A DNA stretch of 35,703 nt from an uncultured bacterium (GTDB lineage: Bacteria > Patescibacteriota > Patescibacteriia > UBA1558 > GWA2-36-10), in NCBI GenBank assembly GCA_903876815.1, contig CAIRBL010000055.1:1-35703 (forward strand), in the 5' to 3' direction. The position numbers and the translations under genes are program-made. This document shows positions 1,058 through 19,146 of the stretch, piece after piece; within the stretch, counting starts at the first letter, position 1, and each line of letters opens with the position of its first letter. Below the pieces are notes generated by a model. The model saw only the letters and a program-made list of their open reading frames with translations. It was not told the DNA's origin and did not search any database.

Positions 1058-1173
1058 TTGCTTGATTTTTTGAAACCCTCTTCATTATATCAAAAATTAA
1101 TTTTTTCAGCGATTAAAAAATTTCTTGACTTTTTAGGTCGATCCAAGCTAGTCTTTAAAGTAGATAAAATAAT

Positions 1174-1662
1174 ATGCAGGTACCAATTCGAAAAGCAGGT
1201 GAATATTCAGATTTGAGCTTAGATCCAAAAATGACTGAAGCAAAATTTTTGGAATTAAAAACAGATTTACAAAAATTAACAGAAGTCCATAGACCCAAAT
1301 GGATCAAGGAGATGCGTATTGCTGCAAGTGATGGAGATTTTTCTGAAAATGCAAGTTATCAAATCGCCAAAGCAAAACTCAGGGGAGTTAATCAAAAAAT
1401 TACTGATTTAGAAAAGCTCTTGGCTAAAGTAGAGATTATACATTTGGATACAAACAAGTCAGTGGTACAAGTCGGTAGTGTTGTGACGATAGAAAATGGA
1501 GGTAAGCAAAGCACCTATCAAATTTTAGGCTCAGTAGAAACTAATCCAGCGCAAGGTATCATTTCTTTACATTCGCCTTTGGGGCAGGCTTTGCTCGGGC
1601 AAAACTTAGGTGCAGTGGTTTTGGTGAATGATAGAGAATATCAGATTGTAAAAATTGCTTAA
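1174..1662 (+). CDS. greA: Transcription elongation factor GreA/GreB family
   Basis: GDFSENASYQIAK motif and C-terminal ISLHSPLGQALLG motif. Confidence 0.92.
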   Translation: MQVPIRKAGEYSDLSLDPKMTEAKFLELKTDLQKLTEVHRPKWIKEMRIAASDGDFSENASYQIAKAKLRGVNQKITDLEKLLAKVEIIHLDTNKSVVQVGSVVTIENGGKQSTYQILGSVETNPAQGIISLHSPLGQALLGQNLGAVVLVNDREYQIVKIA

Positions 1663-1665
1663 AAA

Positions 1666-1694
1666 CAAAAAACGCCAATAGTTGGCGTTTTTTG
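1666..1694. terminator. Bidirectional intrinsic terminator
   Basis: CAAAAAACGCCAA-TAG-TTGGCGTTTTTTG between convergent greA and the 1705-1827 ORF. Confidence 0.85.
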
Positions 1695-1704
1695 AGGAAA
1701 TAAT

Positions 1705-1827
1705 TTATTTACTGTGTTTCTTTTTAGCTTTTGCTTCGAGCATAGCTTTTTTGATTTCTAGTCTTTTTTTGGTTTTTTTAGAACTAGATTTTTGTGGTCT
1801 ACCGACTGCGTGTAATCTTTTTGCCAT
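1705..1827 (-). CDS. 40-aa highly basic small protein
   Basis: Manual translation MAKRLHAVGRPQKSSSKKTKKRLEIKKAMLEAKAKKKHSK*; fills the gap and ends at the bidirectional terminator. Confidence 0.65.
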   Translation of the reverse strand: MAKRLHAVGRPQKSSSKKTKKRLEIKKAMLEAKAKKKHSK

Positions 1828-1943
1828 AAAAATTTTATATTAATTATAAGCTATTTTAGCTGAATTTATGAATAAAAGCAAGAGATTGATATTTTCAGTC
1901 TTTTGGAGTGGCATTTTTTTAGTCTTTTTGATATCATAATGGC

Positions 1944-3089
1944 ATGAAAAAGCTGTGGTTAATTTTGGTATATGCTTTTGCCATTTTTGGCTTTGTGATG
2001 CTGACTGGTTTTTTAGCAGTGATGTTTGGTTTGACTGATGTAGCCGGCAAGACAGATGAGCATAGCGCAGCTTATAATGATTTTGCTGCCCAAACAAAAG
2101 ATTTATTGGAGCCAGCAGAAGCTGCAAACACTACTAGTACAGATGGCTTGATAGGCAAAATTGATGAGCAAATAGATATTTTGGAAGAAATAAAAACTCG
2201 AGAAAAAGAAAATTTGTGTAAGATATTTGTTGCCTCTCAAACAGCAGATTATAATGCTAAAAATATTTTTGACGCTTACAAAAAATATTCTTCTAGAGAG
2301 TTGTTGGATAAAATGCTTTTTGCGTTGCAACTGAAAAAAGACATGCCAAGCTTTGAGCAACAAACCAAAGAATGTATGGATAAGGGTATTGATGAAAATA
2401 TGCTGTTGGCTCAATTTGTTGAAACGAAAGATGCAAATGTTTTTGTCTGGCAAGACAGTGAGCATTGGCGTATTATCAAAGAAGGTTTAACCCGAGATAA
2501 GGATAAAATAAATGAAGCTGCTAAAATTGCTGGCACAGATCCTAGAGAAATAGCAGCAATAACCATTGTAGAGCAGCTTAGACTTTATTATACTCAACGG
2601 GAATTATTTGAAAAAATATTTAAGCCTTTAAAAATTTTAGCTAGCGCCAATAAAATGGCTTGGGGAATCATGGCCATAAAAGAAAAGACAGCTGTGCAAA
2701 TAGAGGCTAATTTGCAAGATGAAAAATCGCCATATTATTTAGGCAAAGAGCTAGAAAACATTTTGAAGTTTAAAAGCTCTAATACTAGCAATGAAAGATA
2801 TGCGCGTTTGACAAATGAGAAAGATCATTTTTATTCTTATCTCTATGGCGCTTTGTATATCAAACAAATAGAAACTCAGTGGCAATTACAAGGTTTTGAT
2901 ATCAGCGATAGGCCAGAAATTATCGCTACGATTTTTAATATTGGTTTTAAAAATTCTGTACCAAAAGCCAATCCTTTAGTTGGCGGCTCTACGATGAATA
3001 TTTTGGGCCAAACTTATAGTTTTGGAGGATTAGCACATGAGTTTTATTATTCTGGAGAAATGGCAGATGTCTTTCCTTTTGAAAAATAA
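1944..3089 (+). CDS. Membrane-anchored protein with a putative lysozyme-like C-terminal domain
   Basis: N-terminal TM helix; IAAITIVE...WGIMAIK...YGALYIK...ATIFNIG pattern resembles lysozyme/SLT-like folds. Confidence 0.55.
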   Translation: MKKLWLILVYAFAIFGFVMLTGFLAVMFGLTDVAGKTDEHSAAYNDFAAQTKDLLEPAEAANTTSTDGLIGKIDEQIDILEEIKTREKENLCKIFVASQTADYNAKNIFDAYKKYSSRELLDKMLFALQLKKDMPSFEQQTKECMDKGIDENMLLAQFVETKDANVFVWQDSEHWRIIKEGLTRDKDKINEAAKIAGTDPREIAAITIVEQLRLYYTQRELFEKIFKPLKILASANKMAWGIMAIKEKTAVQIEANLQDEKSPYYLGKELENILKFKSSNTSNERYARLTNEKDHFYSYLYGALYIKQIETQWQLQGFDISDRPEIIATIFNIGFKNSVPKANPLVGGSTMNILGQTYSFGGLAHEFYYSGEMADVFPFEK

Positions 3090-3129
3090 AAAAACAACTT
3101 TTTCTTTAAATATCTAAGCAAGCTTTATA

Positions 3130-3158
3130 TTGACTTATATAGTCTTTATTGTTATACT
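3130..3158 (+). promoter_or_regulatory. sigma70 promoter of the tRNA operon
   Basis: TTGACT-17 nt-TATACT with extended TG, 20 nt before tRNA-Arg. Confidence 0.8.
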
Positions 3159-3178
3159 AGGGCTTGTTTTAATGTCCG

Positions 3179-3253
3179 GTCCCTATAGTTCAACGGATAG
3201 AACAGCAGCCTTCTAAGCTGTCAATGTAGGTTCGATTCCTACTGGGGACACCA
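3179..3253 (+). tRNA. tRNA-Arg(TCT)
   Basis: Cloverleaf with GTCCCTA/TGGGGAC acceptor, anticodon loop CT-TCT-AA, TTCGATT T-loop, encoded CCA. Confidence 0.96.
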
Positions 3254-3258
3254 TTTTT

Positions 3259-3306
3259 GCCCTTATAGCTCAGTTGGTACCTGCCTGCCGGCAGGCAGGG
3301 AGCAGT
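3259..3306 (+). pseudogene. Duplicated 5' fragment (nt 1-28) of tRNA-Lys, interrupted by a 20-bp palindrome
   Basis: GCCCTTATAGCTCAGTTGGTA (3259-3279) + GAGCAGT (3300-3306) equals 3561-3588 exactly once 3280-3299 is removed. Confidence 0.9.
3280..3299. repeat. 20-bp perfect palindrome CCTGCCTGCCGGCAGGCAGG (REP-like mini-insertion)
   Basis: Self-complementary; inserted between TA and GA of the tRNA D-loop copy with no target duplication. Confidence 0.9.
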
Positions 3307-3312
3307 AAGTAT

Positions 3313-3570
3313 ATGAAAAACGATTATTATGTGTATGCTATTTATAGCATAAAAAATAGTTCTATTTATGTTGGATTATCTGCTAGTCCTGAAAAAAGAT
3401 TACAAGGGCACAATTATGGGATGACTAAATCAACCAAACCACATCGCCCTTGGGCAATGTTTTACAAAGAAAAAATTGGTGATAGAGTAAACGCTAGAAA
3501 AAAAGAGAAATATTTAAAATCAGGTATAGGTAAAGAATTTTTAAAATCATTATTGCATAAGCCCTTATAG
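3313..3570 (+). CDS. Small GIY-YIG nuclease (UPF0213/YazA-like); stop codon lies inside tRNA-Lys
   Basis: YYVYAIYS...IYVGLS...RLQGHN...TKPHRPW...ARKKEKYLKSGIG; ATG 3313 preferred over the track start at 3274. Confidence 0.9.
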   Translation: MKNDYYVYAIYSIKNSSIYVGLSASPEKRLQGHNYGMTKSTKPHRPWAMFYKEKIGDRVNARKKEKYLKSGIGKEFLKSLLHKPL

Positions 3571-3636
3571 CTCAGTTGGTAGAGCAGTTGCCTCTTAAGC
3601 AAACGGTCGCAGGTTCAAGTCCTGCTGGGGGCACCA
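3561..3636 (+). tRNA. tRNA-Lys(CTT)
   Basis: GCCCTTA/TGGGGGC acceptor, CT-CTT-AA loop, TTCAAGT T-loop, CCA. Confidence 0.95.
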
Positions 3637-3648
3637 TTTGATTTTCAT

Positions 3649-3723
3649 GGTGGCTATAGTTTAGCGGTAGAACAGCGGGTTGTGGTCCCGTTAGTCAGGG
3701 TTCGACTCCCTGTAGCCACCCCA
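3649..3723 (+). tRNA. tRNA-His(GTG) with G-1
   Basis: G-GTGGCTA/TAGCCAC-C acceptor, TT-GTG-GT loop, TTCGACT T-loop, CCA. Confidence 0.96.
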
Positions 3724-5238
3724 TACCATAGGTTTTATAAATTTATGATACCCAACAAATTCCCCTTTTATAAGGGGTTTTTGTATTTCTTGTAAAAGTT
3801 TATAAGGTTCAGTTGGTATGGCTTCGACAATTTCCTGATTTTCAACAATAAACTTTTCCCAAAAGAAATTTAGATAATTTCTCTTGCCCTCAGGCTCACT
3901 CTGTTTATAGCTAGTATAAACATTTTTACTAAACTCAACAAGATCTTCAAACTTACCAATATCAAATTTACTATTAGAGCTTAGACGATTAATTTCAGCC
4001 TCTATTAACTCTAGATCAATGCTAATTTTTTCCGATTGTCTTTTATAGGTCGCTTCTGTAATTTGGCTATTAATTAATAAATCTTCAATACGATTTCTTT
4101 TTTTGGTCAACTCTGCTTTATGATAATTTAATTCAGTAATATGTTTATCATTAGCTTTATGGTAATTATCATAGTAGTATTTTAAACCAATGATCAATTT
4201 ATTAAAAAATTCTTCACTAAAAGTTACTTCTCGAAATTTTTCAGCTACTTGTGCTTCTAAGTCTGCCATTGGCACATTGCGACTTGAGTGGCACTTTTTA
4301 CCTCTGGTGCAGTGATAATAGGCGTAAGTTTTTTTTGATGGTTTGAAATGATACTCAGCCGTAAACCTACGACCACAACTACAAAAAATAAAACCATTAA
4401 GCAAAAAATTGTGTTTTCTCTCGTAGCTTTTTCTGGCAACTCTGACACCTAAAATACTTTGTGCCATTACAAAGGTTTCTTTACTAATGATTGGCTCATG
4501 TTTACCTTTCCAGATTTTTTGATCCCATCGGAAATCGCCATAATAGAAAGGATTTTTTAGCAAATAATAAAATTTACTTAATGCCAATTTACCACCTCGT
4601 TTTCCCCTTAAACCTTTACGGTAAAGTATCTCATTGATATTTTCCGCACCATGGTTACCAGTGACATACATGTCAAAAGCCATTTTAATTAAAGGTACTA
4701 TATTTTTATCAGGGACTATAATTCTGTCGCCATTGTTATTAACAACGTTAGAGTAGCCAAGTGGTGCTAAGCGTGGGTACCAACCACTCAATGCTTTTTC
4801 TTCAAGACCTTTTTTGGTTTTACGACCAGTAAGCCCAGACTGGAAAGCATTAAATCCGGCTAGTATCGTATCTACCATTATGCCCTCTGGCGAGTCATCT
4901 ATAAAAGGTTGCGAGATGGAAATTATTTTGCAATTTAATTTTTTGAAGAAGGCTCTAATCGTAAGATGGTCAAGGGTATTTCTCGCTAAACGATCTGTGT
5001 CTTGGACTAAAACTGCATAAATATTTTTATTATCTTCAATATACTCTTGCATAGCCCGTAAGGCTGGGCGATTGGTGTTAGTGGCAGACTTTCCGGGGTC
5101 TTCAAAGATTTTAATAACTTTTAAATCTTCTCTTTTAGCGTATTCTTGGCAAATTCTCTTTTGCACACTTAAAGAATAGCGATCATCTTGCGCCTGCTCT
5201 TCTGTCGACACTCTTGAATATATTACTGCTTGCTTCAT
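3691..5238 (-). CDS. Large serine recombinase (resolvase + recombinase + zinc-ribbon/coiled-coil domains)
   Basis: YSRVS catalytic motif, DRLARN, APLGY, NPFYYG...GKHEPII, CSCG...YYHC...C; last residues encoded antisense to tRNA-His. Confidence 0.95.
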   Translation of the reverse strand: MKQAVIYSRVSTEEQAQDDRYSLSVQKRICQEYAKREDLKVIKIFEDPGKSATNTNRPALRAMQEYIEDNKNIYAVLVQDTDRLARNTLDHLTIRAFFKKLNCKIISISQPFIDDSPEGIMVDTILAGFNAFQSGLTGRKTKKGLEEKALSGWYPRLAPLGYSNVVNNNGDRIIVPDKNIVPLIKMAFDMYVTGNHGAENINEILYRKGLRGKRGGKLALSKFYYLLKNPFYYGDFRWDQKIWKGKHEPIISKETFVMAQSILGVRVARKSYERKHNFLLNGFIFCSCGRRFTAEYHFKPSKKTYAYYHCTRGKKCHSSRNVPMADLEAQVAEKFREVTFSEEFFNKLIIGLKYYYDNYHKANDKHITELNYHKAELTKKRNRIEDLLINSQITEATYKRQSEKISIDLELIEAEINRLSSNSKFDIGKFEDLVEFSKNVYTSYKQSEPEGKRNYLNFFWEKFIVENQEIVEAIPTEPYKLLQEIQKPLIKGEFVGYHKFIKPMVWGGYRESNPD

Positions 5239-5446
5239 TTTGAGGTATTTTTTGTCTGAAAGGTTATTTATTACCTACAGGCCCACAAACCACGCTTAGA
5301 ACTGCTACAAATGGCTAAGGCGACAAGTTAAAGGAATGGCTGGCTGGTAGGCTAAATTATTATTTTTATAATATAATCCTCTTGAGTTTTAATCTACTAA
5401 AAAATGGTCAATATTGTTTTTGTCCTACTCGGGGGAAACAGAATCC

Positions 5447-5710
5447 GATTTCAAAAAGCGAGTACGGGGGGGATATTTATATAATACCCACCCCGTAAAG
5501 CAGACAGGAGCTTCTGGTAAATCTTTGGGAACGCCTCTAGATTTCAAAAACCTTACTGAAATTATTTTTTGACTCCGGCTTAAAATAAATAGCTTAAATG
5601 CTTAACTATATATTAATTAATATTTATTTAAATAGCATATTAATCTTTAAAAGCAATAACATATGTATTTAAATGCATATAATGTAACTATATATAGTTA
5701 ATATATAAGA
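5447..5710. other. Non-coding origin-like region (replication or transfer)
   Basis: GATTTCAAAAA direct repeats (5447, 5540), 15-bp inverted repeat 5463-5497, very AT-rich 5580-5710 with 16-bp palindrome TAACTATATATAGTTA (5685-5700). Confidence 0.4.
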
Positions 5711-5711
5711 G

Positions 5712-6113
5712 CTAGAATTTTATATCGTCGACATTGACTTCTGGTTCAACGTCAGACTCCTGAGTCATTGACACCGCTGGAGTTGGTGCTTGCTCGCCAA
5801 GTTTTTGTCTATAATACTTATCATTGGCAATCTGATACTCTTTAAAAATTTTGACTTTGACTTGTTGCCAGATCTCTTTGTCATTGATTCTTACCAGCTC
5901 TATCCATTTACCGCCAGCGTTGACAGCAGGTGCTTGGATCCAGACATAATCAGAGGTGTCTCGGTCAAGTTTGTCGGATCTTGTTACCCTAAACCCTTTG
6001 ATTATAAAGCCAAGATACTCAAGTTCTACTGTGGCAAGCAGGATGCCCTCATTTTTTACCTGAAGTCTGTGAACCTTAATGTTCTCGATGTTTATTACTT
6101 TTTCTTCTCTCAT
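5712..6113 (-). CDS. SpoVG-like nucleic-acid-binding protein with an SSB-like acidic tail
   Basis: LLATVELEY.GFIIKGFRV...WIQAPA...WIELV...IFKEY resembles SpoVG; ends EPEVNVDDIKF. Confidence 0.65.
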   Translation of the reverse strand: MREEKVINIENIKVHRLQVKNEGILLATVELEYLGFIIKGFRVTRSDKLDRDTSDYVWIQAPAVNAGGKWIELVRINDKEIWQQVKVKIFKEYQIANDKYYRQKLGEQAPTPAVSMTQESDVEPEVNVDDIKF

Positions 6114-6219
6114 ACTTGTTATTTTTTAAATTGATTAAATGATTTTTAAATAATAAACTAGCCAACCAGTTGATTAGCTCTTCCTCGGGTATTTTTTGTG
6201 GGGTTACTTTTTTAGGCAT
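6076..6219 (-). CDS. 47-aa hypothetical protein
   Basis: MPKKVTPQKIPEEELINWLASLLFK...; overlaps the start of the SpoVG-like gene; ATG 6219 preferred. Confidence 0.4.
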   Translation of the reverse strand: MPKKVTPQKIPEEELINWLASLLFKNHLINLKNNKYERRKSNKHREH

Positions 6220-6323
6220 ATTTTTGTTGGCCTCTACTATATATGGTGAATAATCGTTATAAAACAAAAAAGCCCTTATTTTAAAAGGCTTTAAGCTGTA
6301 TAGAACCGCTAGTGAATTCACCG

Positions 6324-7145
6324 CTATTCAGGAATTAGTTGTATTTTTATTTCATAGCATTTGTTTTGCCTATAAGGGTAGAACGGATCATTAGTTATTC
6401 CGAAGGCATTCCGTAAAGTTTGAGCTAGTAATTGTTTAGATTTTTTAAGCATAGGTGAGGCTAAAGAATCGGACCATGATGTTTTGCCATCGTTTGAAGA
6501 AAGACCCTTAAGGAGCACCCATTGTAAATTTGGCTTTCTTTTTCTTTTGTCCATAAAACCTAGTTGCGCATAGTTAACCTTAATTGTTTTATTTATGCCG
6601 TTTTTATCTATAATAACGTTAACATCATGACCATCAATAAATTTTATTGTGATATTTTCCCAGCTAATATTTTCGGGCAGATCTAATAATTTAACTATTT
6701 CTTCAACTTTCTTTTTTGGTGCGGGAGTTGTTTTTTGAAGAATGTTATCAATTTTTTTGCAATTCAGGTCATTAAAATTAAGGACTAGTAAAAAATATTT
6801 TTCTCCAACATAATCAGTTGCGTGTTCTTTGTGATGTTCCATGGCCTGATAATAATTATCAAGAACTACTGGGTCATATGCTATTTCTAGCTCACTGGGT
6901 TTCTGGGGTTCATTTATATTAGGCTCAGTAACCCTAATAGTTTTGACAGTGAAATTATTTAAAGCGCCACTTTGTGTCAATTTATTTAATATCTCCATGT
7001 AAGCATCGTATATTGCTGATTCATCAATATTGCACAAGACAATCTCAATAATAGGAGCATCGCTGGACGCTGCTTTCTTAATATTGTTCAATAAATTTAA
7101 GACTAGTCGCCTTTTTATATTATTTACATTACTCATGCTAGACAA
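6324..7145 (-). CDS. Hypothetical protein, possible C-terminal DNA-binding domain
   Basis: 273-aa ORF; basic C-terminal half (KRKRKPNLQW...KKSKQLLAQTLR...DPFYPY). Confidence 0.7.
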   Translation of the reverse strand: MSSMSNVNNIKRRLVLNLLNNIKKAASSDAPIIEIVLCNIDESAIYDAYMEILNKLTQSGALNNFTVKTIRVTEPNINEPQKPSELEIAYDPVVLDNYYQAMEHHKEHATDYVGEKYFLLVLNFNDLNCKKIDNILQKTTPAPKKKVEEIVKLLDLPENISWENITIKFIDGHDVNVIIDKNGINKTIKVNYAQLGFMDKRKRKPNLQWVLLKGLSSNDGKTSWSDSLASPMLKKSKQLLAQTLRNAFGITNDPFYPYRQNKCYEIKIQLIPE

Positions 7146-7294
7146 ATTATTTTGTTTGATAGCTAATTATACATTGTACTAAGGTTTTGTATGTTGCCCA
7201 AGGTAAACTAATGAATCTGAAGGTTTTGCGGGCTTGTACGGGTATGTTTAAACCCGAGAAGTATCAAGTTTATAGGTAAACACCTGACCACAGG

Positions 7295-7345
7295 CACCCC
7301 AGCTTATTTTACAACCAAAAAACCACCCTTACAAGGTGGTTTATT
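7295..7345 (+). repeat. att-like site 1: CACCCCA followed by a terminator hairpin
   Basis: CACCCCA equals the tRNA-His 3' end; hairpin AAACCACC-CTTACAA-GGTGGTTT. Confidence 0.6.
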
Positions 7346-7366
7346 AAAATAGTTTTGATATTTGTA

Positions 7367-7555
7367 TTACTGACCATTTCTTAAATATTCACCAGCCATA
7401 GCCCCTACAAGGCAAAATAATAAAAAAACTGTGATTCCTAGAATGATTTTTAACCATTCTGGCGTTTTGATTTCATCTAAAAACTCCGCACTTTTGTTAA
7501 TAGTATGCACAAAACCTATAAAGCATAAAATCATTAGTAGGTAAACATAAAACAT
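7367..7555 (-). CDS. 62-aa two-TM small membrane protein
   Basis: Two hydrophobic stretches in the translation. Confidence 0.6.
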   Translation of the reverse strand: MFYVYLLMILCFIGFVHTINKSAEFLDEIKTPEWLKIILGITVFLLFCLVGAMAGEYLRNGQ

Positions 7556-7601
7556 ATTGTTTTTTTATCAAGTACTTAAGTAGTACTTATTATATTTTAT
7601 T

Positions 7602-7730
7602 AAAACAAAAAGGGCCTTCCGTCGGCGGTAACCATTTCTAGCTACCCTACACCTTTTCAGGCATAGACCACTCACATAGTACCGATCAGAAGACCGTCTT
7701 TATATGTGAGTGGAATTTGTAGCCATGCCT
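7602..7730 (-). ncRNA. Candidate structured RNA with pseudoknot or alternative pairing
   Basis: Helices 7668-7678/7703-7713 (11 bp), 7659-7664/7725-7730, 7627-7633/7640-7646 and 7613-7626/7681-7695; mismatches become G-U only on the minus strand; ends in a U-tract. Confidence 0.55.
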
Positions 7731-7890
7731 CAATAAATTGAAGTTTAGGCCTTAATTTCAGTATTAAATTGTATTTATATTTTAGGTTATTTGGCTAAAA
7801 AAGTCTAGGGTGAATTCTGGTGTGACCATAATGGATACAGTCTTTACTTTTTTGATAGAAAGTTAGATAATTACCTTATAAAATTTAATT

Positions 7891-9273
7891 ATGCAAAAAG
7901 AAATTACCAACTATCAAGATAAATGGCCATTGGCAAAAGTGAAAATAACCGAGCTTATTTTAGATATTAAAAATGTTAGACTTGATACCGAATACGAATC
8001 ACAAGATGAGATTATTAACGACCTGTTCCTTAATGAAGAAGCAATGGGCATTTTAGAAAGCATACATCAAAATGGATATTTTCCAGACGAACCGCCAGTT
8101 GTTGTAAAAGAAAATGGAAAATTTGTAGTCTTAGACGGCAATAGAAGAGTAGTGTCTCTAAAGGCTATGTTATCTCCAAATATAGCCCCCTCTAAATATG
8201 CCGCCAAAATAGAGAAATTAATGAGCGGTCGTAAGGCGATTGAAAATATTGATGTCCACGTAGCTAAATCTCGTGATGAGGCAATGGAATATTTAGCTGC
8301 TAAACATACAAAAACTACCAGAAAAGCCTGGAGTGCATTAAGGAGGGCGTATTTTTATTATGCACAAAAAGAAAACGGGCAGTCTGTAGAAAAACTCATT
8401 GAGAGATACAGGGGCGTTGATATTCCTTCCTACATAAAGATGTACGAAATGCATAATGTGGCACTATCTCTAAAGGGCACTTCTGAAGAAATAAAAAACA
8501 AAATAGCAAATAAAAGAACTTTCCCAATATCTACACTCGAAAGATTTTATTCCGATAAATATATTCAGGAAGAACTCGGAATAAACTTCGATAAAATAAC
8601 AGGGGAGGCTACCGTACCATCTGGTGATGATTTTGATAAAGTTTATTCCAGAGTAATCACTGACATTGTTTCTGGAATAGCAACGTCTCGTAAAGAACTA
8701 TCTAAAGAATCCGACAGAAAAAAATATTTAGACTCTATTATTAATGAGGTCTTAGATAAAACTAAAATAGAAAAGAAAAAAACCAAACCCGCCTTTTCTT
8801 TTAAACGACAAAAAAAAGCTTACCGAGAAAAAAATACTTTAGTTTCAAAAAAAATTGAAAATCCTTTTGACTGCCCTGGTATTACTCGTATTTTGTGGGA
8901 ATTACAGGCAATAGATTATCTTAAATTTCCTAATGCGACCGCTGATTTGTTAAGAACTTTTTTAGAAATCATTATAAAAAAATATTTGGAAGAAATAAAA
9001 TCTCTTCCTGCACCAAAAAGAAATGGTGGCTATATTTATTTAGATGATGTGCTTAAAAAAATTAAATCAGATCTACAAACAGCTACTAATCATAAACTAG
9101 TTCAAGTGATAAGTGAAATAGAAAAAAACAAATGGTATCTTGATAGTATTAATCACAACCCAGAAGTTTTTGCTGTTGACTATAGAGTTAAAGAAGCTTG
9201 GGATCAAATATACCCACTTGTGAAATATATATTTGAAACGTATAATAAAAATAAAATAACTGACCAAGCTTAA
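7891..9273 (+). CDS. ParB/Srx-like N-terminal domain protein with a putative HEPN-like C-terminal domain
   Basis: LILDIKNVRL...VVLDGNRRVVSLK (ParB-like); C-terminal LLRTFLE...LDSINHNP. Confidence 0.75.
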   Translation: MQKEITNYQDKWPLAKVKITELILDIKNVRLDTEYESQDEIINDLFLNEEAMGILESIHQNGYFPDEPPVVVKENGKFVVLDGNRRVVSLKAMLSPNIAPSKYAAKIEKLMSGRKAIENIDVHVAKSRDEAMEYLAAKHTKTTRKAWSALRRAYFYYAQKENGQSVEKLIERYRGVDIPSYIKMYEMHNVALSLKGTSEEIKNKIANKRTFPISTLERFYSDKYIQEELGINFDKITGEATVPSGDDFDKVYSRVITDIVSGIATSRKELSKESDRKKYLDSIINEVLDKTKIEKKKTKPAFSFKRQKKAYREKNTLVSKKIENPFDCPGITRILWELQAIDYLKFPNATADLLRTFLEIIIKKYLEEIKSLPAPKRNGGYIYLDDVLKKIKSDLQTATNHKLVQVISEIEKNKWYLDSINHNPEVFAVDYRVKEAWDQIYPLVKYIFETYNKNKITDQA

Positions 9274-9277
9274 AAAT

Positions 9278-10126
9278 ATGAAATTTTATTCACCTTTAAG
9301 GTACCCCGGCGGAAAGAATAAATTATCAAAATTTATTGCTTCTATTTGCAAAGAAAATGCAATAGATGGCAATTACGTTGAGCCATACGCTGGTGGCGCC
9401 TCAGTGGCTCTATACCTTCTTTTTAATGGGTATGTAAAATCCATCACTATAAATGATTATGATAAGGCTATATATGCATTTTGGCATTCCGTATTAAATG
9501 ATACAGAAAGACTGTGCAAAAAAATAAGAAACGCGGATGTTTCAATTAATAATTGGCGCGAACAGAAAAAAATACAAACTAGTAAAGCAACGGAACATAA
9601 TTTATTAAAATTGGGATTTTCGACCTTTTTTTTAAATCGAACTAATTACTCTGGCATTATTGATGGCGGTATGATTGGCGGTGCTTTACAAAAAGGAAAA
9701 TATAAAATTAATTGTCGTTTTAATAAGGAAGAATTGATTGATAGAATAAAATTTATTGCCATACATAAAAAAAATATCCGTTTATTAAATATGGACGCAT
9801 TAGATTTAGTAGACGCAATTGAAAAAGATAATAAAACTATTTTTTATTTTGATCCGCCATATTATTTAAAAGGCCCTTCATTATATATGAACCATTATAA
9901 ACATAGCGATCATAAAAAAGTGAGTGATAAAATAAAAAAAATAGAAAATGCAAAATGGATAGTTTCTTATGATAACACACGAGAAATAAATAAAATGTAT
10001 ATCTCTTGCCCCAAAAAAAAGTATACTTTTTTTCACACGGCTTATAACGCAAGAGAGGGTAAGGAGGTTTTATTTTTTAGTAAAAATATCATATTGCCAA
10101 AAATTATCATCCCAATTATGCACTAA
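9278..10126 (+). CDS. DNA adenine methyltransferase (Dam/D12 class)
   Basis: SPLRYPGGK, YVEPYAGGASV, FFLNRTNYSG, DPPY catalytic motif. Confidence 0.95.
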   Translation: MKFYSPLRYPGGKNKLSKFIASICKENAIDGNYVEPYAGGASVALYLLFNGYVKSITINDYDKAIYAFWHSVLNDTERLCKKIRNADVSINNWREQKKIQTSKATEHNLLKLGFSTFFLNRTNYSGIIDGGMIGGALQKGKYKINCRFNKEELIDRIKFIAIHKKNIRLLNMDALDLVDAIEKDNKTIFYFDPPYYLKGPSLYMNHYKHSDHKKVSDKIKKIENAKWIVSYDNTREINKMYISCPKKKYTFFHTAYNAREGKEVLFFSKNIILPKIIIPIMH

Positions 10127-10160
10127 CTATACCTGTATTTATATTCAAGGTTTGAATAGG

Positions 10161-10203
10161 ACCCCACAAGAACTTCTCTTCCTCAAAAGAGGTGTTTTTG
10201 TTT
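10161..10203 (+). repeat. att-like site 2: 43-bp direct repeat copy A (ACCCCA + terminator)
   Basis: 39/43 identical to 11540-11582 by manual alignment. Confidence 0.85.
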
Positions 10204-10221
10204 TGTAAAATTTAAACAATG

Positions 10222-10253
10222 AAAAAAGGGCCGCAGACTCGTGTCTTTGGCCC
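10222..10253 (-). terminator. Terminator of the GC-rich gene pair
   Basis: Minus strand GGGCCAAAGAC-ACGA-GTCTGCGGCCC-TTTTTT. Confidence 0.7.
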
Positions 10254-10282
10254 CCGTTGATCAGGAGTTGTCTCCCGTACGA

Positions 10283-10732
10283 TTATTCGGACTCGCCATA
10301 GTCGCGAACAATCGTGATGAATGGGTAGGATTTTAGCCCGTAGGCATAACCGCGGAGAATGTCCTTCATGCCGCGATGTTCGTCCTCGTACCCAAAGTTG
10401 ATGGAAATTCGATTTGACAACCAGTAGTAGCGCGTGCCTTCCACAGCCACGAACTCTCGATAAGCCTCAGGATTGAACTGAACGAGCTTCTTGTTGAAGC
10501 TCCGGCTTGCCGAGGCGATCGATACGCGTACTGGACGAGTGTCAATCTTGGCCGCAAAGACCCACGGTGGTGAAGCATGGAAGCCTGCCTGTTTCTCCAA
10601 CCAGAATTTGCCGGAGAACTTGTTCCAGACAATCGCCACCTCGTTCGGCTCTTGGTAGTGCACGAAAGCGAGATAGAAAATCATCAGAACACCGGCGATG
10701 CAAGCTCCTAGGCGTAGGTGCTTACGTTGCAT
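10283..10732 (-). CDS. Membrane-anchored protein with an SPFH/band-7-like N-terminus (paralog 2)
   Basis: TM helix then EPNEVAIVWNKFSG...GFHASPPW...IDTRP; GC-rich. Confidence 0.7.
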   Translation of the reverse strand: MQRKHLRLGACIAGVLMIFYLAFVHYQEPNEVAIVWNKFSGKFWLEKQAGFHASPPWVFAAKIDTRPVRVSIASASRSFNKKLVQFNPEAYREFVAVEGTRYYWLSNRISINFGYEDEHRGMKDILRGYAYGLKSYPFITIVRDYGESE

Positions 10733-10735
10733 GGT

Positions 10736-11314
10736 TTACTTCTCCGTCTGTGGAGGCGTGGCTTTTTCGACGTGTACTTCCTGTGCATTGCCGTCCAATG
10801 GCTTGGAGCCCTCCGTTGTCCCTAGCTCGCGCAAGATCTTCAAGAAGGGGTAGGTATTGCCGTCGTAGGCATAGCTACGTAGGATTTCGCTGAAAGGTGT
10901 AGTGGAACCAACAGCGGAACCAGTACCCGGACCTTCGTAATCGTTTCGACCATGCCAGGACAAGAACAGTTCGAGACCCTTGGGGTCGAATTGAACAAGC
11001 TTGGCATTCAGCACGCGCGAGTTGGCATTCATCTGCAACTGCATCGGCCGCAGGTCCATGGTGTGGACCTTATGGACGATCGGTAACGTGACGATCCAAC
11101 CACGCCTGTAGGTGCCGTCGCTGTTTTCCTGCACGACGATCTCTCCACGGTGTTGGCCGATCAGGTCATACCTGAAAGCCACCTGGTAGTTGTCGACATC
11201 GGTAACAAAGAGCACCTTGAACATGCCCAGTCCGATCCAGAACGAGACAAAGAGCACGACGAACACGACGCCGGTCTTTGCCCAAAAGTTCAAACCATCC
11301 CACAAGTCTTTCAT
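10736..11314 (-). CDS. Membrane-anchored protein with an SPFH/band-7-like N-terminus (paralog 1)
   Basis: AAGGAG SD before ATG 11314; VDNYQVAFRYD...GWIVTLPIV...MDLRP; shares KLVQF.P and YAY...YPF motifs with paralog 2. Confidence 0.75.
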   Translation of the reverse strand: MKDLWDGLNFWAKTGVVFVVLFVSFWIGLGMFKVLFVTDVDNYQVAFRYDLIGQHRGEIVVQENSDGTYRRGWIVTLPIVHKVHTMDLRPMQLQMNANSRVLNAKLVQFDPKGLELFLSWHGRNDYEGPGTGSAVGSTTPFSEILRSYAYDGNTYPFLKILRELGTTEGSKPLDGNAQEVHVEKATPPQTEK

Positions 11315-11364
11315 CTCTGACTCCTTTTCTGTGTTGGCGGAACCAAACCTATGGTTCATTGGGC

Positions 11365-11409
11365 TTTTCAATGACTTGTTATTGTAGCATTTATAATATA
11401 TTTTGTCAA
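11365..11409 (-). promoter_or_regulatory. sigma70 promoter plus boxA-like motif
   Basis: TTGACA-17 nt-TACAAT (extended TG), then GTCATTGAAAA. Confidence 0.7.
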
Positions 11410-11539
11410 TAGCTGGTTCTAACCTACTTAAAATAGACCTTGAGCTTACAAAATTATTAAACTAGCCAATCTTTATTTCCGGTATATAAACATTAACTAA
11501 CTCACGGCTTAATATATTTCCGATTGATTTTATCAGGTT

Positions 11540-11582
11540 ACCCCACAACAGCATCTCTTCTTCAAAAGAGGTGTTTTTGTTT
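11540..11582 (+). repeat. att-like site 3: 43-bp direct repeat copy B
   Basis: ACCCCACAACAGCATCTCTTCTTCAAAAGAGGTGTTTTTGTTT; hairpin plus U-tract. Confidence 0.85.
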
Positions 11583-11636
11583 GACCAATAAATAAAACAA
11601 ACATATACTATAAATAATTAATATTAATTTTCTATA

Positions 11637-12908
11637 ATGAAATTATTTGAAAATCTCAAAAAACATCAATGGATTATTACAGAGGCTATTATGGTTGGTA
11701 TCCTAGGTTCAGTTTTTATAGCCAGCTTTTTTGTATGGGGAGAAATTAAATCATTTAATAATAAATTAGCCAACACTTTAGAATTACCTGGCACCGCTAT
11801 AGATATGATGAATGGTGACAATGACCAAGTTGATATTAATGCTTGTGATAAAAATACTATTAAGGATTTTGGTGAAGTAAAAGAAGGGACTGATATTTTT
11901 GTATATACAACTAGATGTTTTTTAGATGTCACACCTTTAAATGCGTCGACTATATTTTATCAATTTTATGCGCGAGATTTTGGGGGTACTTTCAATAAAG
12001 AAATTTATAATGTTTTGAATACACCGGATTTCGATGGTGGTTCAGGCGTAGTAATCAGCGATCCCCATAAAAATTTTATTGGAATATATAGGATTAATGA
12101 AAATGGCGAGACAATAGTGATAGATAGTTTTGGTAATAAAATTTCAGAAGAAGCACCAGACTATCGAAAAAATGTCTATGAGTCCCCAGATAAAAACATA
12201 ACTGTAAGTATCGATTATCCAGAGCTTAGGGGTAATACTTCTTTAACAATTGTTAATAATGAGAGTGGCGCTAAATATTTCTTTGATGATTTTAAACAAA
12301 GTTTACATGGTATTCGTCATGGAGCTTGGTCCGTTGATGGTAAGACTTTATATATAACAGGAGGTATCTATGAGTTTTCTGCGCCAGCAAGATTGTGGAG
12401 TATTGATGTTGATTCTGGTAAGATTAGTGAATATGATAATTTAGATGGATATTTTTATCCGGTGTATATTTTTCCAGAAGAGAATATCGCATATTTTACA
12501 GATGCTGAAGCAAATTTTGAATCGGAAAATAGAGAAATTAGTCTCTATAAAATGGATCTTGCTTCAAGGAAGATAGAAAAAGTTTATACAGATAAAGCCA
12601 CATGGACATTTAATAACCTTAAAGTAATTGACGGCAGTTTATATTACAGGGCTTTTTATGAAGATAAAGGTCAAGTTATTGTGAAGCTTAGCGGTAAGCA
12701 AAAAGAAATTTTTCTAGAGAATGTTACTGATCTTAAAGTGGGCACAGGCCCTCGCTTTGTTGCTACTGTTGATAATGGTTATTTTGTTTTTGATCTAGAA
12801 AAAGGCATTAGTCAGCTAATTGAGGTGCCAACTAGATACGATGGCTTACCAATAATAGATAAAACCGAATATTTTCAAAATATCGATGGGATTATTGAAA
12901 CTTATTAA
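11637..12908 (+). CDS. Membrane-anchored surface protein, probable beta-propeller
   Basis: N-terminal TM; ESPDK, AWSVDGKTLYIT, LWSIDVDSG and LYKMDLASR blade-like motifs. Confidence 0.7.
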   Translation: MKLFENLKKHQWIITEAIMVGILGSVFIASFFVWGEIKSFNNKLANTLELPGTAIDMMNGDNDQVDINACDKNTIKDFGEVKEGTDIFVYTTRCFLDVTPLNASTIFYQFYARDFGGTFNKEIYNVLNTPDFDGGSGVVISDPHKNFIGIYRINENGETIVIDSFGNKISEEAPDYRKNVYESPDKNITVSIDYPELRGNTSLTIVNNESGAKYFFDDFKQSLHGIRHGAWSVDGKTLYITGGIYEFSAPARLWSIDVDSGKISEYDNLDGYFYPVYIFPEENIAYFTDAEANFESENREISLYKMDLASRKIEKVYTDKATWTFNNLKVIDGSLYYRAFYEDKGQVIVKLSGKQKEIFLENVTDLKVGTGPRFVATVDNGYFVFDLEKGISQLIEVPTRYDGLPIIDKTEYFQNIDGIIETY

Positions 12909-12912
12909 ACTT

Positions 12913-13176
12913 ATGAATTTTTTTAAAACATTATTTATTAGTGGCACAGGAAATTTTGCTGAAATTAACTCGGAGTTTTTAGAAAAGAAAAAACTTAGTT
13001 ATCCGCCAGATGGCTCATATTTAATCTGGCTCAAAAATACATATGGTAAACTTCAGGCGGCGATGATAGTGGCTAAAGAAAAAGGCGAAATTGTGCTAGT
13101 GGAGTGGGCTGCCAAAATTCAATTAGTAGAAGAGGAGATAGAGAAAGAAAAAAATTTAAGACCACAGGTTAATTAG
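12913..13176 (+). CDS. Hypothetical protein (87 aa)
   Basis: Co-oriented ORF filling the gap between neighbours; ATG 12913. Confidence 0.6.
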   Translation: MNFFKTLFISGTGNFAEINSEFLEKKKLSYPPDGSYLIWLKNTYGKLQAAMIVAKEKGEIVLVEWAAKIQLVEEEIEKEKNLRPQVN

Positions 13177-13184
13177 AAAAAAAT

Positions 13185-14321
13185 ATGAAGTTACTCAAAG
13201 GCCTAAAAAAATCCGAGAATATTGTTTTTATAGCCATAATAGTTGGTATTCTAGGTGTGTTTATTATAACTAGCTTTTTTATATGGGGAGAAATGAAATC
13301 ATTCCATAAAAACAAAGAGATTGTCGATAATCCAAGTGATAATAGTTGGCAAACTTATACAAATAATGATTATTTTTATAGTATCAAATACCCATCGGAT
13401 TGGAGTGTAAATAATTGGTCTAATATAATTCAAATATTACCACCCGGCGAAAAATCTATAGGACAATATAGCTCTGGACCAGCTATTTCTATTATGCACG
13501 TTGATCAAATTGATTCACTCAATAGTGATGAAACAAATAAAATTTATATAAATAACATGGCCGTTACAAAATGGGAATTTGCGAACGATGTTGATACTTA
13601 TGTGAATTTATGTTTTCCTCGTCCCGAAGGAGGTTGTATTAAAATTTATTGGTTAAAATCTTTAGAAAATAAACACGAAAATTTTTGGGAAATAATAGAG
13701 TCAATTACCATTTTAAATGATGATAGCCCGGAATGGGAACTATACACTGACTATGAGCTTGGTATTTCATTTCGTTATCCAAAATTAAAATGGGGTAAAA
13801 TAAATGTTTTATCCATGAAAGAAAGTGATCACAACGATAATGTTTTTAAATCAGGTAAAGCAAAAATAATAAAATTTAACAAATACTACGGTGCTTCGTT
13901 ATCGGCTTTTTCAAATAATTTTTCTCATATGTATTACCAAGATCCATACTTAGGAGGTCAGGATTTGAGTAAGACTTGTACCAATGAAAAAATATTGACT
14001 GATAAAGGAATATGTAAAAATATCAATGTAGATAACCAATCAACTTACGAAAACATAACTGATTTTGGATATGAATGTTCGTTTGTTGATTCTCGTAGAA
14101 TTAGTTTAAACTTAGATCAAAATGGATACTCTGGCATGCTTATCAGTCAAACACTACCATCTAGCCAAAACTGCGGCTCTCTTGAGATAGAAAATATGAA
14201 CGAAATTAATAGGGCAAAAGATTTAACAAGCCAATACAACAGAGAAAATCTACCAAAATCATATTTAACCAATTTAGAGTTAATGGATCAGGTTTTATCT
14301 TCATTTAAATTTTTGAATTAA
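13185..14321 (+). CDS. Membrane-anchored surface protein with two PsbP-like repeats
   Basis: WQTYTNNDYFYSIKYPSDW and WELYTDYELGISFRYP; ends DQVLSSFKF. Confidence 0.75.
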   Translation: MKLLKGLKKSENIVFIAIIVGILGVFIITSFFIWGEMKSFHKNKEIVDNPSDNSWQTYTNNDYFYSIKYPSDWSVNNWSNIIQILPPGEKSIGQYSSGPAISIMHVDQIDSLNSDETNKIYINNMAVTKWEFANDVDTYVNLCFPRPEGGCIKIYWLKSLENKHENFWEIIESITILNDDSPEWELYTDYELGISFRYPKLKWGKINVLSMKESDHNDNVFKSGKAKIIKFNKYYGASLSAFSNNFSHMYYQDPYLGGQDLSKTCTNEKILTDKGICKNINVDNQSTYENITDFGYECSFVDSRRISLNLDQNGYSGMLISQTLPSSQNCGSLEIENMNEINRAKDLTSQYNRENLPKSYLTNLELMDQVLSSFKFLN

Positions 14322-14329
14322 AATTTAAC

Positions 14330-14373
14330 TACAACCAAAAAACACTGAGTGAAATCGAAAGGTGTTTTGTTGT
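14330..14373 (+). terminator. Terminator related to att-like site 1; possible distal island boundary
   Basis: TACAACCAAAAAAC identical to 7310-7323; 3' arm AGGTGTTTTG as in sites 2 and 3. Confidence 0.55.
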
Positions 14374-14450
14374 TATTCTGTCAAGGTAAAATTATTTTGA
14401 TACATAGTCTTTTTTATGAGCATTTGTTATAATATGATTAAATTAAATTT

Positions 14451-15539
14451 ATGAAAAAACTTTTTATTATTATATTATTAGCTTTATTTTTACCACTTGG
14501 TGTTTTGGCGCAACAAGAGGAAATGTTTAAGGCCAGAGTTTTGCAAGTACTTGATCAAAAAGAGAATATAGATGAAGCTGGTGTTTTGTTGCTGCAACAA
14601 AATTTAAAACTCAAAGCTTTGGACGGTAGTTTTGCTGGGCAAGAAATAACTTTTTATGGCATTGATGATTTTCAGGTCGTATCTGGTCAAGTATATGAAG
14701 CTGGAGATAGAGTAGTGGTTAACCACAGACAAGACGAAGCTGGCAAAGATGTTTTTTTTGTATTAGATTATGACAGAACAAATCCTATCATTTGGTTAGC
14801 TTGCATTTTTATTTTGAGTGTTATTTTTATTGGTCGCTGGAAAGGCTTACGCTCTTTGATTGGTTTAGTAGCTAGTTTTGTAGTAATTTTGAAGTTCATT
14901 ATTCCTCAGATTGTCGCTGGCTCAAATCCTATTTTGATTTCTGTTACAGGTAGTATTGTGATTTTATTTTTTGCTATTTATCTGACACAAGGTTTTGGCA
15001 GAAAATCTCATTTAGCTAATCTAGCCTTGGTGACATCTTTATTATTCACAGCCGTTCTGTCTGTTTTCTTTACCCATTTAGCACAATTGAGTGGCTATTT
15101 AGGTGAAGAAACTATTTTTTTGTTAGAGTCTAGCCAAGGTAGTATAAATTTACAAGGTTTATTATTGGCTGGCATTATGCTTGGTACTTTAGGGGTTTTG
15201 GATGATGTGATTATCAGTCAGATTTCGACAGTGGAGCAGATCAAACTTGCTAATCCTAACTTAAGTAAAAAACAAGTTTATAAAATGAGCTTAAAAGTTG
15301 GCGTTGATCACATCACCTCCATGATCAATACTTTATTTTTTGCTTATGCTGGCGTAGCTTTGCCGATGTTGATTCTATTTAGCCAAAGTGATGTTTTGGG
15401 CTTGAATCTGACCCAAGTGATCAATAACGAGATGATTGCTACTGAGATTATTCGTACTTTGCTAGGTAGTATTGGCTTAGTTTTTTCTATTCCGATAGCT
15501 AATTTTTTGGCTAGCTATTTTCTGTCAGTCAAAAAATAA
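14451..15539 (+). CDS. YibE/F family membrane protein
   Basis: IGRWKGLRSL, GTLGVLDDV, MINTLFFAYAG, EIIRTLLGSIGL motifs. Confidence 0.9.
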   Translation: MKKLFIIILLALFLPLGVLAQQEEMFKARVLQVLDQKENIDEAGVLLLQQNLKLKALDGSFAGQEITFYGIDDFQVVSGQVYEAGDRVVVNHRQDEAGKDVFFVLDYDRTNPIIWLACIFILSVIFIGRWKGLRSLIGLVASFVVILKFIIPQIVAGSNPILISVTGSIVILFFAIYLTQGFGRKSHLANLALVTSLLFTAVLSVFFTHLAQLSGYLGEETIFLLESSQGSINLQGLLLAGIMLGTLGVLDDVIISQISTVEQIKLANPNLSKKQVYKMSLKVGVDHITSMINTLFFAYAGVALPMLILFSQSDVLGLNLTQVINNEMIATEIIRTLLGSIGLVFSIPIANFLASYFLSVKK

Positions 15540-15609
15540 TACAAAGCTAAAATATTTTTTTAAAAAAAGTCTCTTTGTCAAAAAGAGGCTTTTTGATTAT
15601 AATAGCCTT

Positions 15610-19098: not shown

Positions 19099-19146
19099 AA
19101 AAATAATTGCAACTGACTTGCAATTATTTTTTGTTTGTGCTAAGCT
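19099..19146 (+). promoter_or_regulatory. Zur/Fur-type operator overlapping the promoter
   Basis: Perfect inverted repeat AAAAATAATTGCAA-CTGAC-TTGCAATTATTTTT; -35 TTGCAA-17 nt-TAAGCT. Confidence 0.75.

Follow-up and report, generated by a model that had tools for sequence, protein, structure and literature searches.

In the present work, we examine a stack of inserted genes located behind the tRNA-His gene of a bacterial contig. The window, by which we mean the whole stretch of 35,703 nt that was analysed, is contig C55 of an assembly (G000) of 921,978 bp in 105 contigs, which is 94.5% complete and has a GC (guanine plus cytosine) content of ~35%. The host is of Patescibacteria type, as judged from a DUF5671 protein and from the homologues of the window genes, all of which come from Patescibacteria where the source is named. 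We will show that the 3′ end of tRNA-His is an insertion site for large serine recombinases (LSRs) and that the stack behind it holds more than one unit: a 6.4-kb element with its own LSR gene (unit 1) and, directly beyond it, a 1.4-kb unit without a recombinase that is bounded by attachment-site repeats (unit 2). The explanation that we favour, with somewhat better than even confidence, is that both units were placed there by site-specific insertion and that unit 2 derives, by loss of its recombinase, from an element of another LSR lineage. For the window itself the claim is a modest one, namely one intact element and one relic-like unit. The ultra-small genomes of Patescibacteria (~1 Mb) are often viewed as static; here, on the other hand, a tRNA end appears to serve as a landing pad on which defence and membrane-protein genes are stacked.

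The tRNA-His 3′ end as an insertion target

Genes for tRNA-Arg, tRNA-Lys and tRNA-His lie on the + strand within 3179-3723 (ARAGORN), and the 3′ terminus of tRNA-His reads ...GCCACCCCA. The crossover would take place in its last six nucleotides, ACCCCA (3718-3723), which would have been the left arm of the attB site and would now be the attL of the LSR element.

We have compared the 3′ flanks of tRNA-His in relatives (one survey set, plus G008 and G033). Where the site is unoccupied, a terminator hairpin directly follows CCCCA (G005, G017, G018, G022, G032, G028, G014 and G027), and these trailers have the same build as the 43-nt block that occurs twice in the window (see below). An LSR gene converges on the tRNA-His end in G000, G003, G020, G008, G033 and the metagenome contigs L087/L088, and in G012 one is located within ~210 nt of the tRNA.

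Occupied and empty sites can be compared directly within one genus. G022 is empty, while in G003 the native trailer has been displaced to ~21.3 kb from tRNA-His, and the DNA in between is made up of a 12.7-kb family I island and an 8.6-kb family II island that meet at a CCCCA site (family I is the LSR lineage of the window, family II that of the L087 type). The LSR of the first island is 73% identical to the window LSR and lies against tRNA-His in the same way. Comparison with the unoccupied congener shows the native hairpin to be at the far end of the insertion, which places the crossover at or next to CCCCA and means that the hairpin on the recombinase side belongs to the element. Junction pairs, such as that of G003 and the empty G022 site, have just ACCCCA in common, and the crossover probably falls within this word. 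A first-pass annotation of this DNA had expected breakpoints at such words in related tRNA-His loci; they are indeed seen at CCCCA for G003/G022, but there is none at 7295, where the window and G003 are collinear. The same-genus genome G001 was also considered as a witness of occupancy and was rejected, its contigs being broken near the locus and its tRNA matches belonging to a different tRNA-Lys (TTT).

A T-loop-like word is located 19 nt from CCCCA in 8/8 tRNA-His arms. In 16 of the 21 junction arms it is found, as best or second-best match, at 23-25 nt, where several matches are loose and 7 of the arms are same-genome copies. Serine-integrase attP and attB half-sites differ by a 5-bp offset, the attP half-sites being the longer ones. 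The two spacings recall this difference and can be taken as a hint that the junction arms are of attP type.

All three LSR genes of G000 abut a tRNA 3′ end. The one at tRNA-His is the sole recombinase in 3717-14373 according to Pfam, as the first-pass annotation had stated, but two more LSR genes are located on other contigs, at tRNA-Ser (C94:1-2200) and tRNA-Trp (C35:14100-15800). On C94, ~100 nt of the LSR 3′ end recurs inverted near the contig start, followed by a partial second copy of tRNA-Ser.

The two units

The features of the stack are collected in Table 1. Between 3600 and 11700, the window shares five DNA blocks, in the same order, with island 1 of G003. Because of this collinearity we treat 3724-10161 as a single element, which by its sequence appears to be an intact integrative one. 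The first-pass layout had four sites and four modules, two of which, the LSR unit and a module of RNA, ParB/HEPN and Dam genes, together make up this one element.

Table 1. Features of the tRNA-His region (window coordinates; identities of blocks 1-5 refer to G003 island 1; ORF, open reading frame)
Feature	Position	Strand	Evidence or remark
tRNA-His (GTG)	3650..3723	+	ARAGORN, Rfam; 3′ flanks in relatives
Family I LSR element (predicted, integrated), P′ arm to P arm, 6.4 kb	3724..10161	.	collinearity with G003 island 1
Block 1, tRNA + LSR	3641-5489		72.6% over 1866 nt
Block 2, 81-aa ORF region	6131-6220		72% over 94 nt
Block 3, non-coding	7177-7340		79.4% over 165 nt
Block 4, LOOT RNA + flanks	7593-7820		91% over 228 nt
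Block 5, bases ahead of CCCCA (P arm)	10137-10167		87% over 31 nt
Large serine recombinase, 515 aa	3691..5238	-	PF00239, PF07508, PF13408; phrog_95
Three small ORFs, 133, 81, 273 aa	5712..7145	-	no family match above threshold
Conserved non-coding backbone block	7177..7340	.	holds the 7295 site and terminator 7342-7320 (-)
62-aa ORF	7367..7555	-	translation; no family match above threshold
LOOT RNA (Rfam RF03000)	7627..7751	-	79.8 bits vs gathering score 46.4
PD-Lambda-5-type defence pair (predicted cargo)	7891..10126	+	PADLOC, Pfam PF02086
ParB-like protein (A), 460 aa	7891-9273	+	22 PD-Lambda-5_A models, best E 2.9e-49
Dam-family N6-adenine methyltransferase (B), 282 aa	9278-10126	+	PD-Lambda-5_B E 9.8e-116; PF02086
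P arm, left half of attR of family I element	10127..10161	+	21/27 identity with G003 arm
Attachment-site block copy 1 (ACCCCA + terminator hairpin), left end of unit 2	10161..10203	+	
Recombinase-less unit 2, 1.4 kb	10162..11540	.	bounded by two block copies
GC-rich paralogous pair + own terminator at low-coordinate end	10228..11371	-	
149-aa ORF	10283-10732	-	GC-rich pair
211-aa ORF	10736-11371	-	GC-rich pair
Right flank of unit 2 with P arm ending ...CAGGTTA/CCCCA	11375..11540	.	homologous to G005 junction
Promoter-like site TTGACA-17-TACAAT	11409-11381	-	promoter scan
Attachment-site block copy 2	11540..11582	+	+ strand terminator 11550-11575
Three genes for N-terminally anchored proteins, 423, 96, 378 aa	11637..14321	+	paralogous N-termini

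The recombinase combines resolvase catalytic (PF00239, E 9.4e-31), recombinase (PF07508, E 1.9e-12) and zinc-ribbon (PF13408, E 6e-09) domains, the three LSR hallmarks that we required within one protein of ~450-700 aa, and it matches the integrase family phrog_95 (E 2.9e-94). The last 8 codons of its gene are supplied by the 3′ end of tRNA-His. At the opposite end of the element, the P arm on the recombinase strand prolongs the LSR frame, as WGPIQTLNIN... in the window and as WGPIQTLVIN* in G003; of the four base differences within the WGPIQTL(N/V)IN stretch, two are synonymous, and the arm is kept in G003 beside unrelated genes (the identity in Table 1 is a hand count on the alignment). In the predicted excised form, the reading frame would run on into the P arm (WGPIQTLNINTGIVSA*). 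The continuation of the frame therefore indicates that the LSR gene spans its own attachment site and that its C-terminus changes upon insertion. The four closest relatives in the protein collection (P0121-P0124, 71-93% identity) all end in WG followed by tRNA-His acceptor-end residues, so that this lineage is consistently seen inserted at tRNA-His. In the spacer upstream of the LSR gene (5328-5380), runs X2 and X4 have extra contig depth with loose ends on both sides, and this ~50-nt sequence seems to be common to other, more abundant organisms.

For the 133-, 81- and 273-aa ORFs, the databases used were Pfam, NCBIfam, PHROGs and PADLOC. The 62-aa ORF probably encodes a small membrane protein, to judge from its translation. 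The 165-nt non-coding block (L025 8025-8189 in the second element) is flanked by differing genes in two LSR elements and has a minus-strand terminator on one side and the 273-aa ORF start on the other; it may be the promoter/operator region of the operon of the element. It was also considered as a structured RNA and rejected, with folding z values of -0.65 (minus) and -0.14 (plus) and no energy signal.

The RNA that the first-pass annotation had noticed in this part of the window is LOOT, the match to which covers model positions 1-121 and lies well above the Rfam threshold. In the order, LOOT has 36 matches in 22/86 genomes, often in several copies, while 14 control genomes gave zero matches. 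For at least 15 of the 36, the same contig has an LSR gene match no more than 10 kb away (a hand count, and a lower bound because the LSR lists used score thresholds); these include one in each of the two tRNA-His islands of G003 and one in the G020 island. LOOT is thus an accessory RNA in this order and, as far as its sequence context indicates, part of the backbone of the family I element, which supplies a context for an orphan RNA.

The cargo is a predicted PD-Lambda-5 anti-phage system. Its A and B genes are located 4 nt apart on the same strand and correspond to the ParB-like and Dam-family genes recognized in the first-pass annotation; PADLOC identifies them as this pair, but they do not form a module separate from the LSR unit. 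The A protein is rare, being found in 2/86 genomes of the order.

We now turn our attention to unit 2. The two copies of the 43-nt block are identical at 39/43 positions, as had been noted earlier, and a search of all 105 contigs with up to 10 substitutions finds the repeat at these two places only; it is thus not a generic genome-wide terminator, which had been named as the finding that would speak against the array. The block directly follows tRNA-His in L087 and L088, where it matches the 11540 copy at 43/44 and the 10161 copy at 40/43 positions. These contigs were found by a metagenome scan with part of the block, and the core genes of this relative have 77-80% DNA identity; a scan of the genome contigs with the block pattern gave 0 matches. 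In L087/L088 the block is the 3′ end of a 531-aa LSR gene, whose product is ~30% identical to the window LSR, and it encodes the last 14 residues. The family II LSRs of G003, G008, G020 and G033 likewise end ...WG at tRNA-His CCCCA, the G038 copy abuts another tRNA in the same manner, and in all five the last ~15 residues are encoded by the terminator hairpin. No family II LSR with at least 45% identity to L087 is present in the 94.5%-complete assembly. Unit 2 has the attachment block of family II but no recombinase, and we favour a family II origin for it. The first-pass proposal that the resident LSR handles this unit does not agree with a left repeat that matches the 3′ end of a different LSR lineage.

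From low to high coordinates, unit 2 consists of a minus-strand terminator, the 149-aa ORF, the 211-aa ORF, an AT-rich promoter region and an arm ending in ...CAGGTTA/CCCCA. In the two ORFs no recombinase family is detected (Pfam, NCBIfam, PHROGs, PADLOC). With its att-derived direct repeats and an LSR element directly upstream, it has the features of a recombinase-less unit of the CIME (cis-mobilisable element) or pseudo-SCC type (SCC, staphylococcal cassette chromosome). The GC content is 0.42-0.54 across 10001-11500 vs ~0.26-0.37 on either side, and only the coding part and the terminator are GC-rich, while the promoter region and the two flanks share the AT-richness of the host. The two genes recur as a pair in 5/86 genomes of the order, G000 included, at ~40% identity. 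For the 211-aa protein 195 homologues were found; the named ones are all "hypothetical", and those with organism names are from Patescibacteria. For the earlier label "SPFH-like" there is a structural lead: the Atlas model of the 211-aa protein (predicted local distance difference test, pLDDT, 0.68) aligns to a Band_7 cluster with a template modelling (TM) score of 0.55, but Pfam, PF01145 included, gives no match for the pair, nor does a PDB sequence search with a 28-sequence profile. A membrane-anchored, SPFH/Band-7-like pair is therefore a lead that comes from the predicted fold. In G017 (L071, C7, 1247-1325), a homologous pair lies ~230 nt behind tRNA-Gln, the last 12 nt of which are repeated 56 nt downstream; this repeat may be what a small insertion has left behind at the end of another tRNA.

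The right flank of unit 2 (11375-11540) has 74% column identity to a junction that lies 2.4 kb behind tRNA-His in G005. The P arms of both read as a 27-28-codon frame, WG..(I/V)KSIG.I..., and this frame looks as if it had once been the 3′ end of an LSR gene. Beyond it, block copy 2 occupies the position of the native tRNA-His trailer and terminator, and it could be either the native one or a relic of a further element.

Alternative explanations of the stack

In the mechanism that we favour, both units would have been inserted at the tRNA-His 3′ end, in ACCCCA with its encoded CCA. As insertions would take place at the tRNA-proximal CCCCA, unit 2 would have arrived first and unit 1 later. The insertion of unit 1 would swap the last LSR codons, since the gene runs across its own attachment site. 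Unit 1 would consist of a backbone (recombinase, small ORFs, conserved non-coding block and LOOT) with the PD-Lambda-5 pair as cargo, and unit 2 would be a stripped-down derivative of a family II element (L087 type) with this same tRNA end as its target; cis-mobilisable elements and pseudo-SCC units would be its counterparts.

It should be noted that several observations weigh against this mechanism. Both block copies diverge from L087 at one same base, just after GTTTTTGTTT, which would be a coincidence for two independent deletions and is better accounted for by a defined site edge. The 11540 copy is 98% identical to L087, vs ~83% for tRNA-Lys + tRNA-His and 77-80% for the core genes; with this excess similarity it may be mobile DNA too, which would leave the true end of the stack undefined. 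Inside unit 2 there is no relic of an LSR gene, and the non-coding spacers are just ~80 and 168 nt. The homologues of the GC-rich pair are GC-elevated in other genomes too, so that GC-richness alone is no proof of recent import. An excised-form LSR with its tail running into the P arm was found neither among the 11 homologues read nor in viral contigs; the latter, queried with each LSR, gave no relatives, and such single-protein queries reach close relatives only. Finally, six sequencing runs hold part of the region, and the Logan contigs of four of them (two studies, depth 2-6x) contain no excision products, circles or empty sites, although contigs of this depth cannot show absence or rare forms. 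They bridge 7269-8714, 9635-10451 and 11312-11752 without differences, with 7295, 10161 and 11540 unchanged, and a single joint was reported, in one run (11071 to 11176, one side being 22 letters long), which coincides with none of the sites.

A rival reading is that unit 2, like the short units of G033, is a truly mobile mini-cassette, which would form a circle and be integrated by an LSR supplied in trans. The P′ arm would mimic the native trailer, so that each insertion rebuilds attB and the terminator, and the locus would be the counterpart of an integron platform, with a serine recombinase in charge. Unit 2 has 91% identity between its left and right blocks, and tRNA-His with the left block would resemble an intact attB; the homology of all three block copies stops at the same base. 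Stacks in relatives point in the same direction. The one-contig genome G033 (L101 = G033:C1:269500-289499, 1238-16300) has one family II LSR with at least nine CCCCA + hairpin junctions behind it. Six copies of a 44-nt arm + CCCCA repeat, 86-93% identical, are found there, and intervals of 0.45-1.9 kb hold one or two genes each, with surface-type proteins, an ABC-type ATPase, a cold-shock protein and unknowns as cargo. The only other recombinase domain in 20 scanned ORFs of the locus is in a tyrosine-integrase-like ORF upstream of the tRNA. Such an array is hard to obtain by repeated decay alone, and it is the integron-like picture that the first-pass annotation had in mind. In G005, there are two extra junctions, and one unit is flanked by identical trailers of at least 46 nt; G018 has one extra junction and G008 two. 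However, G005 has no LSR match in the genome, which means that junctions can persist as fossils, and the arms translate as relics of LSR 3′ ends, as expected for the leftovers of whole elements. The assembly has no family II LSR with 45% or more identity to that of L087, and circle or empty-site junctions are not seen at the low depth available. On balance we consider active capture unlikely for unit 2. The alternative mentioned in the first-pass annotation, decayed tandem islands, is for the GC-rich unit at least as likely as active capture.

Another option considered was that the GC-rich pair entered without any recombinase, by homologous recombination between conserved flanks (left, the 43-nt block; right, the promoter and arm region of 165 nt), in which case the junctions would be old fossils. 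The homology of 11375-11540 to G005 would fit, as the two genomes have different genes on its left side (a 665-aa ORF in G005, the GC-rich pair in the window), and so would the confinement of GC-richness to coding part and terminator between AT-rich, host-like flanks. The left homology spans only 43 nt, however, and the 9% divergence of the blocks is what is expected of a P′/B′ pair of different origin. We therefore regard this scenario as quite improbable.

The full first-pass model, in which the resident LSR captures or excises four modules at 3717, 7295, 10161 and 14330 (with 11540), has very little probability in our view, even though every motif that it lists is present and the modules do differ in composition and gene orientation. 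ACCCCA is found on the + strand at 7296, 10161 and 11540, but only the latter two are followed by a + strand terminator. The 7320-7342 hairpin is recognised as a terminator only when the minus strand is read, and in a scan for hairpins after each CCCCA in the genome, with a + strand T-run criterion, 12/731 pass, among them 10162 and 11541, while 7297 fails. The 7295 site lies in the 165-nt block that is collinear with G003 island 1, where the motif reads CACCCGC, and it is thus an internal conserved feature of the backbone and not a junction or module boundary. Its flanks resemble neither arm of the resident element. The CAGGCA ahead of CCCCA at 7295 does resemble a tRNA-His acceptor end, and a tRNA-end relic was considered on this basis, but the position of the block in the G003 backbone led us to reject it. 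At 14330 there is a hairpin that shares the 14-mer TACAACCAAAAAAC with 7310; it was examined as a decayed block copy and rejected, since CCCCA is absent and the alignment covers only the A-rich stem of 7295, a match at chance level that marks no boundary. Finally, the block of unit 2 belongs to another LSR lineage.

For 7295 and 14330, chance recurrence is indeed sufficient. ACCCCA has 224 copies genome-wide and CACCCCA 54, from which ~0.2 are expected per strand of a 6.4-kb element. The word AGGTGGTTT at 7334 and the word AGGTGTTTT at 10190, 11569 and 14360 have 12 and 23 copies, respectively, on both strands of the genome. Four A-rich exact 14-15-mers, TACAACCAAAAAAC among them, repeat in 3000-16000, apart from the 43-nt repeat and the tRNA-Lys duplication. 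The pattern CCCCA-N15-45-GGTGKTTT has 3 occurrences in the window vs 0.06 expected, and 4 in the whole genome, but it was composed after the sites had been seen, so that these counts are a biased test. That the whole stack consists of generic terminators with a recurring short C-rich word is, on the other hand, hardly credible, as the 43-nt repeat occurs at two places only, is contiguous with tRNA-His in a relative, and has homologous junctions behind tRNA-His in several genomes.

A wider proposal goes beyond the two-unit stack, and we put it forward only tentatively, as a possibility that is less probable than not. The tRNA-His CCA end of Patescibacteria would be a serine-recombinase platform for gene capture, in which P′ arms that copy the trailer restore termination and attB and thereby allow open-ended stacking of the kind seen in G033, the LSR C-terminus is rewritten, and LOOT has a role in the life cycle of the element. 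If this is true, the rewriting of the C-terminus could be a built-in switch between the free and the inserted state. The natural attB/attP pairs and the compact recombinases are open to ordinary plasmid assays.

Surrounding genes and known systems

The genes beyond 11540 encode N-terminally anchored proteins, which follow the junction both in the window and in G005, where the N-terminus has a homologue on the downstream side of the corresponding junction. As no distal attachment site was found for them, CCCCA being absent at 14330, we place these genes outside the demonstrable stack, contrary to the first-pass suggestion that they form a cassette. Compared with G005 (L026), the stretch from the tRNA cluster to the surface-protein genes (window 1100-15600) is inverted relative to GreA and YibE/F, with one breakpoint near 14330-14450; in L088 the YibE/F-side genes are also upstream of the tRNAs.

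Upstream of tRNA-His, an ORF for a 98-aa GIY-YIG protein (3274-3570) has on one side an exact 21-nt duplicate of the 5′ end of tRNA-Lys (3259-3279) and on the other the intact tRNA-Lys itself (3561-3636). In G005 no insert separates tRNA-Arg from tRNA-Lys, and window 3254-3581 looks like a small endonuclease-gene insertion that duplicated the tRNA-Lys start. Further downstream, at 19118-31294, there is a run of metal-homeostasis genes (Fur-like, ZIP, TspO, CsoR-like, DsbD-cupredoxin, a 1201-aa P-type ATPase with HMA domains, VIT1 and CorA), which are ordinary core genes. The last 4.2 kb (31500-35703) have a GC content of 0.55-0.58 vs ~0.35 elsewhere and long ORFs that overlap on both strands, with no Rfam match. 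In one of these (34760-35581), Pfam recognises the C-terminal sorting domain of type IX secretion (PF18962, E 1.9e-12); this domain is typical of Bacteroidota, and this part may be a chimeric contig end or foreign DNA.

Our literature search found no description of LSR stacks at tRNA-His in Patescibacteria, and there are hardly any reports of serine recombinases that regularly insert at tRNA ends. The abstract of Islander attributes tRNA/tmRNA islands to tyrosine integrases. By analogy, the stack appears nevertheless to be an LSR hotspot of a known kind, the closest described cases being the ssrA islands of Dehalococcoides and the SCC composite islands. As described by McMurdie et al. 2011 (PMC3146451), the ssrA-specific islands, with the CcrB-like serine recombinase DsiB, are arranged in tandem behind a single small-RNA gene and bounded by direct repeats of its 3′ end, and the gene of the ~540-aa recombinase, next to attL, has the reverse orientation. 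Some islands lack an integration module and are discussed as possible cis-mobilisable elements; genes for a ParB-domain protein and for DNA modification are found inside the islands, together with a conserved tRNA-like RNA (PMC3146451). The target there is the ssrA T-loop, whereas here it is the tRNA-His CCA end, with a repeat made up of 6 nt of the RNA gene and 37 nt of trailer. The second small recombinase, DsiA, was not found here, the units are far smaller, and the host is of Patescibacteria type.

For SCC and SCCmec composite islands, Hossain et al. 2024 (PMC11470126) describe LSRs that insert cassettes at the 3′ end of one housekeeping gene (rlmH, compared to a tRNA here), ccr-less SCC-like cassettes with defence genes, and tandem cassettes some of which are enriched in anti-phage genes. 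The recombinases of one cassette were demonstrated there to mobilise its neighbours, while the window stack is known from sequence alone. The window LSR is not a Ccr orthologue, its best NCBIfam scores being 131 bits for CcrB and 79.9 bits for CcrC, each vs a cut-off of 900. The tycheposons of Prochlorococcus (Hackl et al., bioRxiv 10.1101/2020.12.28.424599) are also small cargo-bearing elements at tRNA genes of a streamlined genome with tandem junctions; unlike here, they have mostly tyrosine recombinases, and many carry replication genes, none of which were found in the present units.

The comparison with integrons, made in the first-pass annotation, holds as an analogy only. Integrons have the tyrosine recombinase IntI, an attI site, attC sites that act as folded hairpins, and the promoter Pc; in 3691-14321, Pfam gives no tyrosine recombinase domain, and an attC-type site is absent. 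The likeness consists of rows of small promoter-poor gene units with a repeated recombination site and one recombinase, and it is best seen in G033, not in the window. What sets the present system apart is a serine recombinase, double-stranded att-type junctions that mimic a tRNA 3′ end, and units with their own promoter and terminator.

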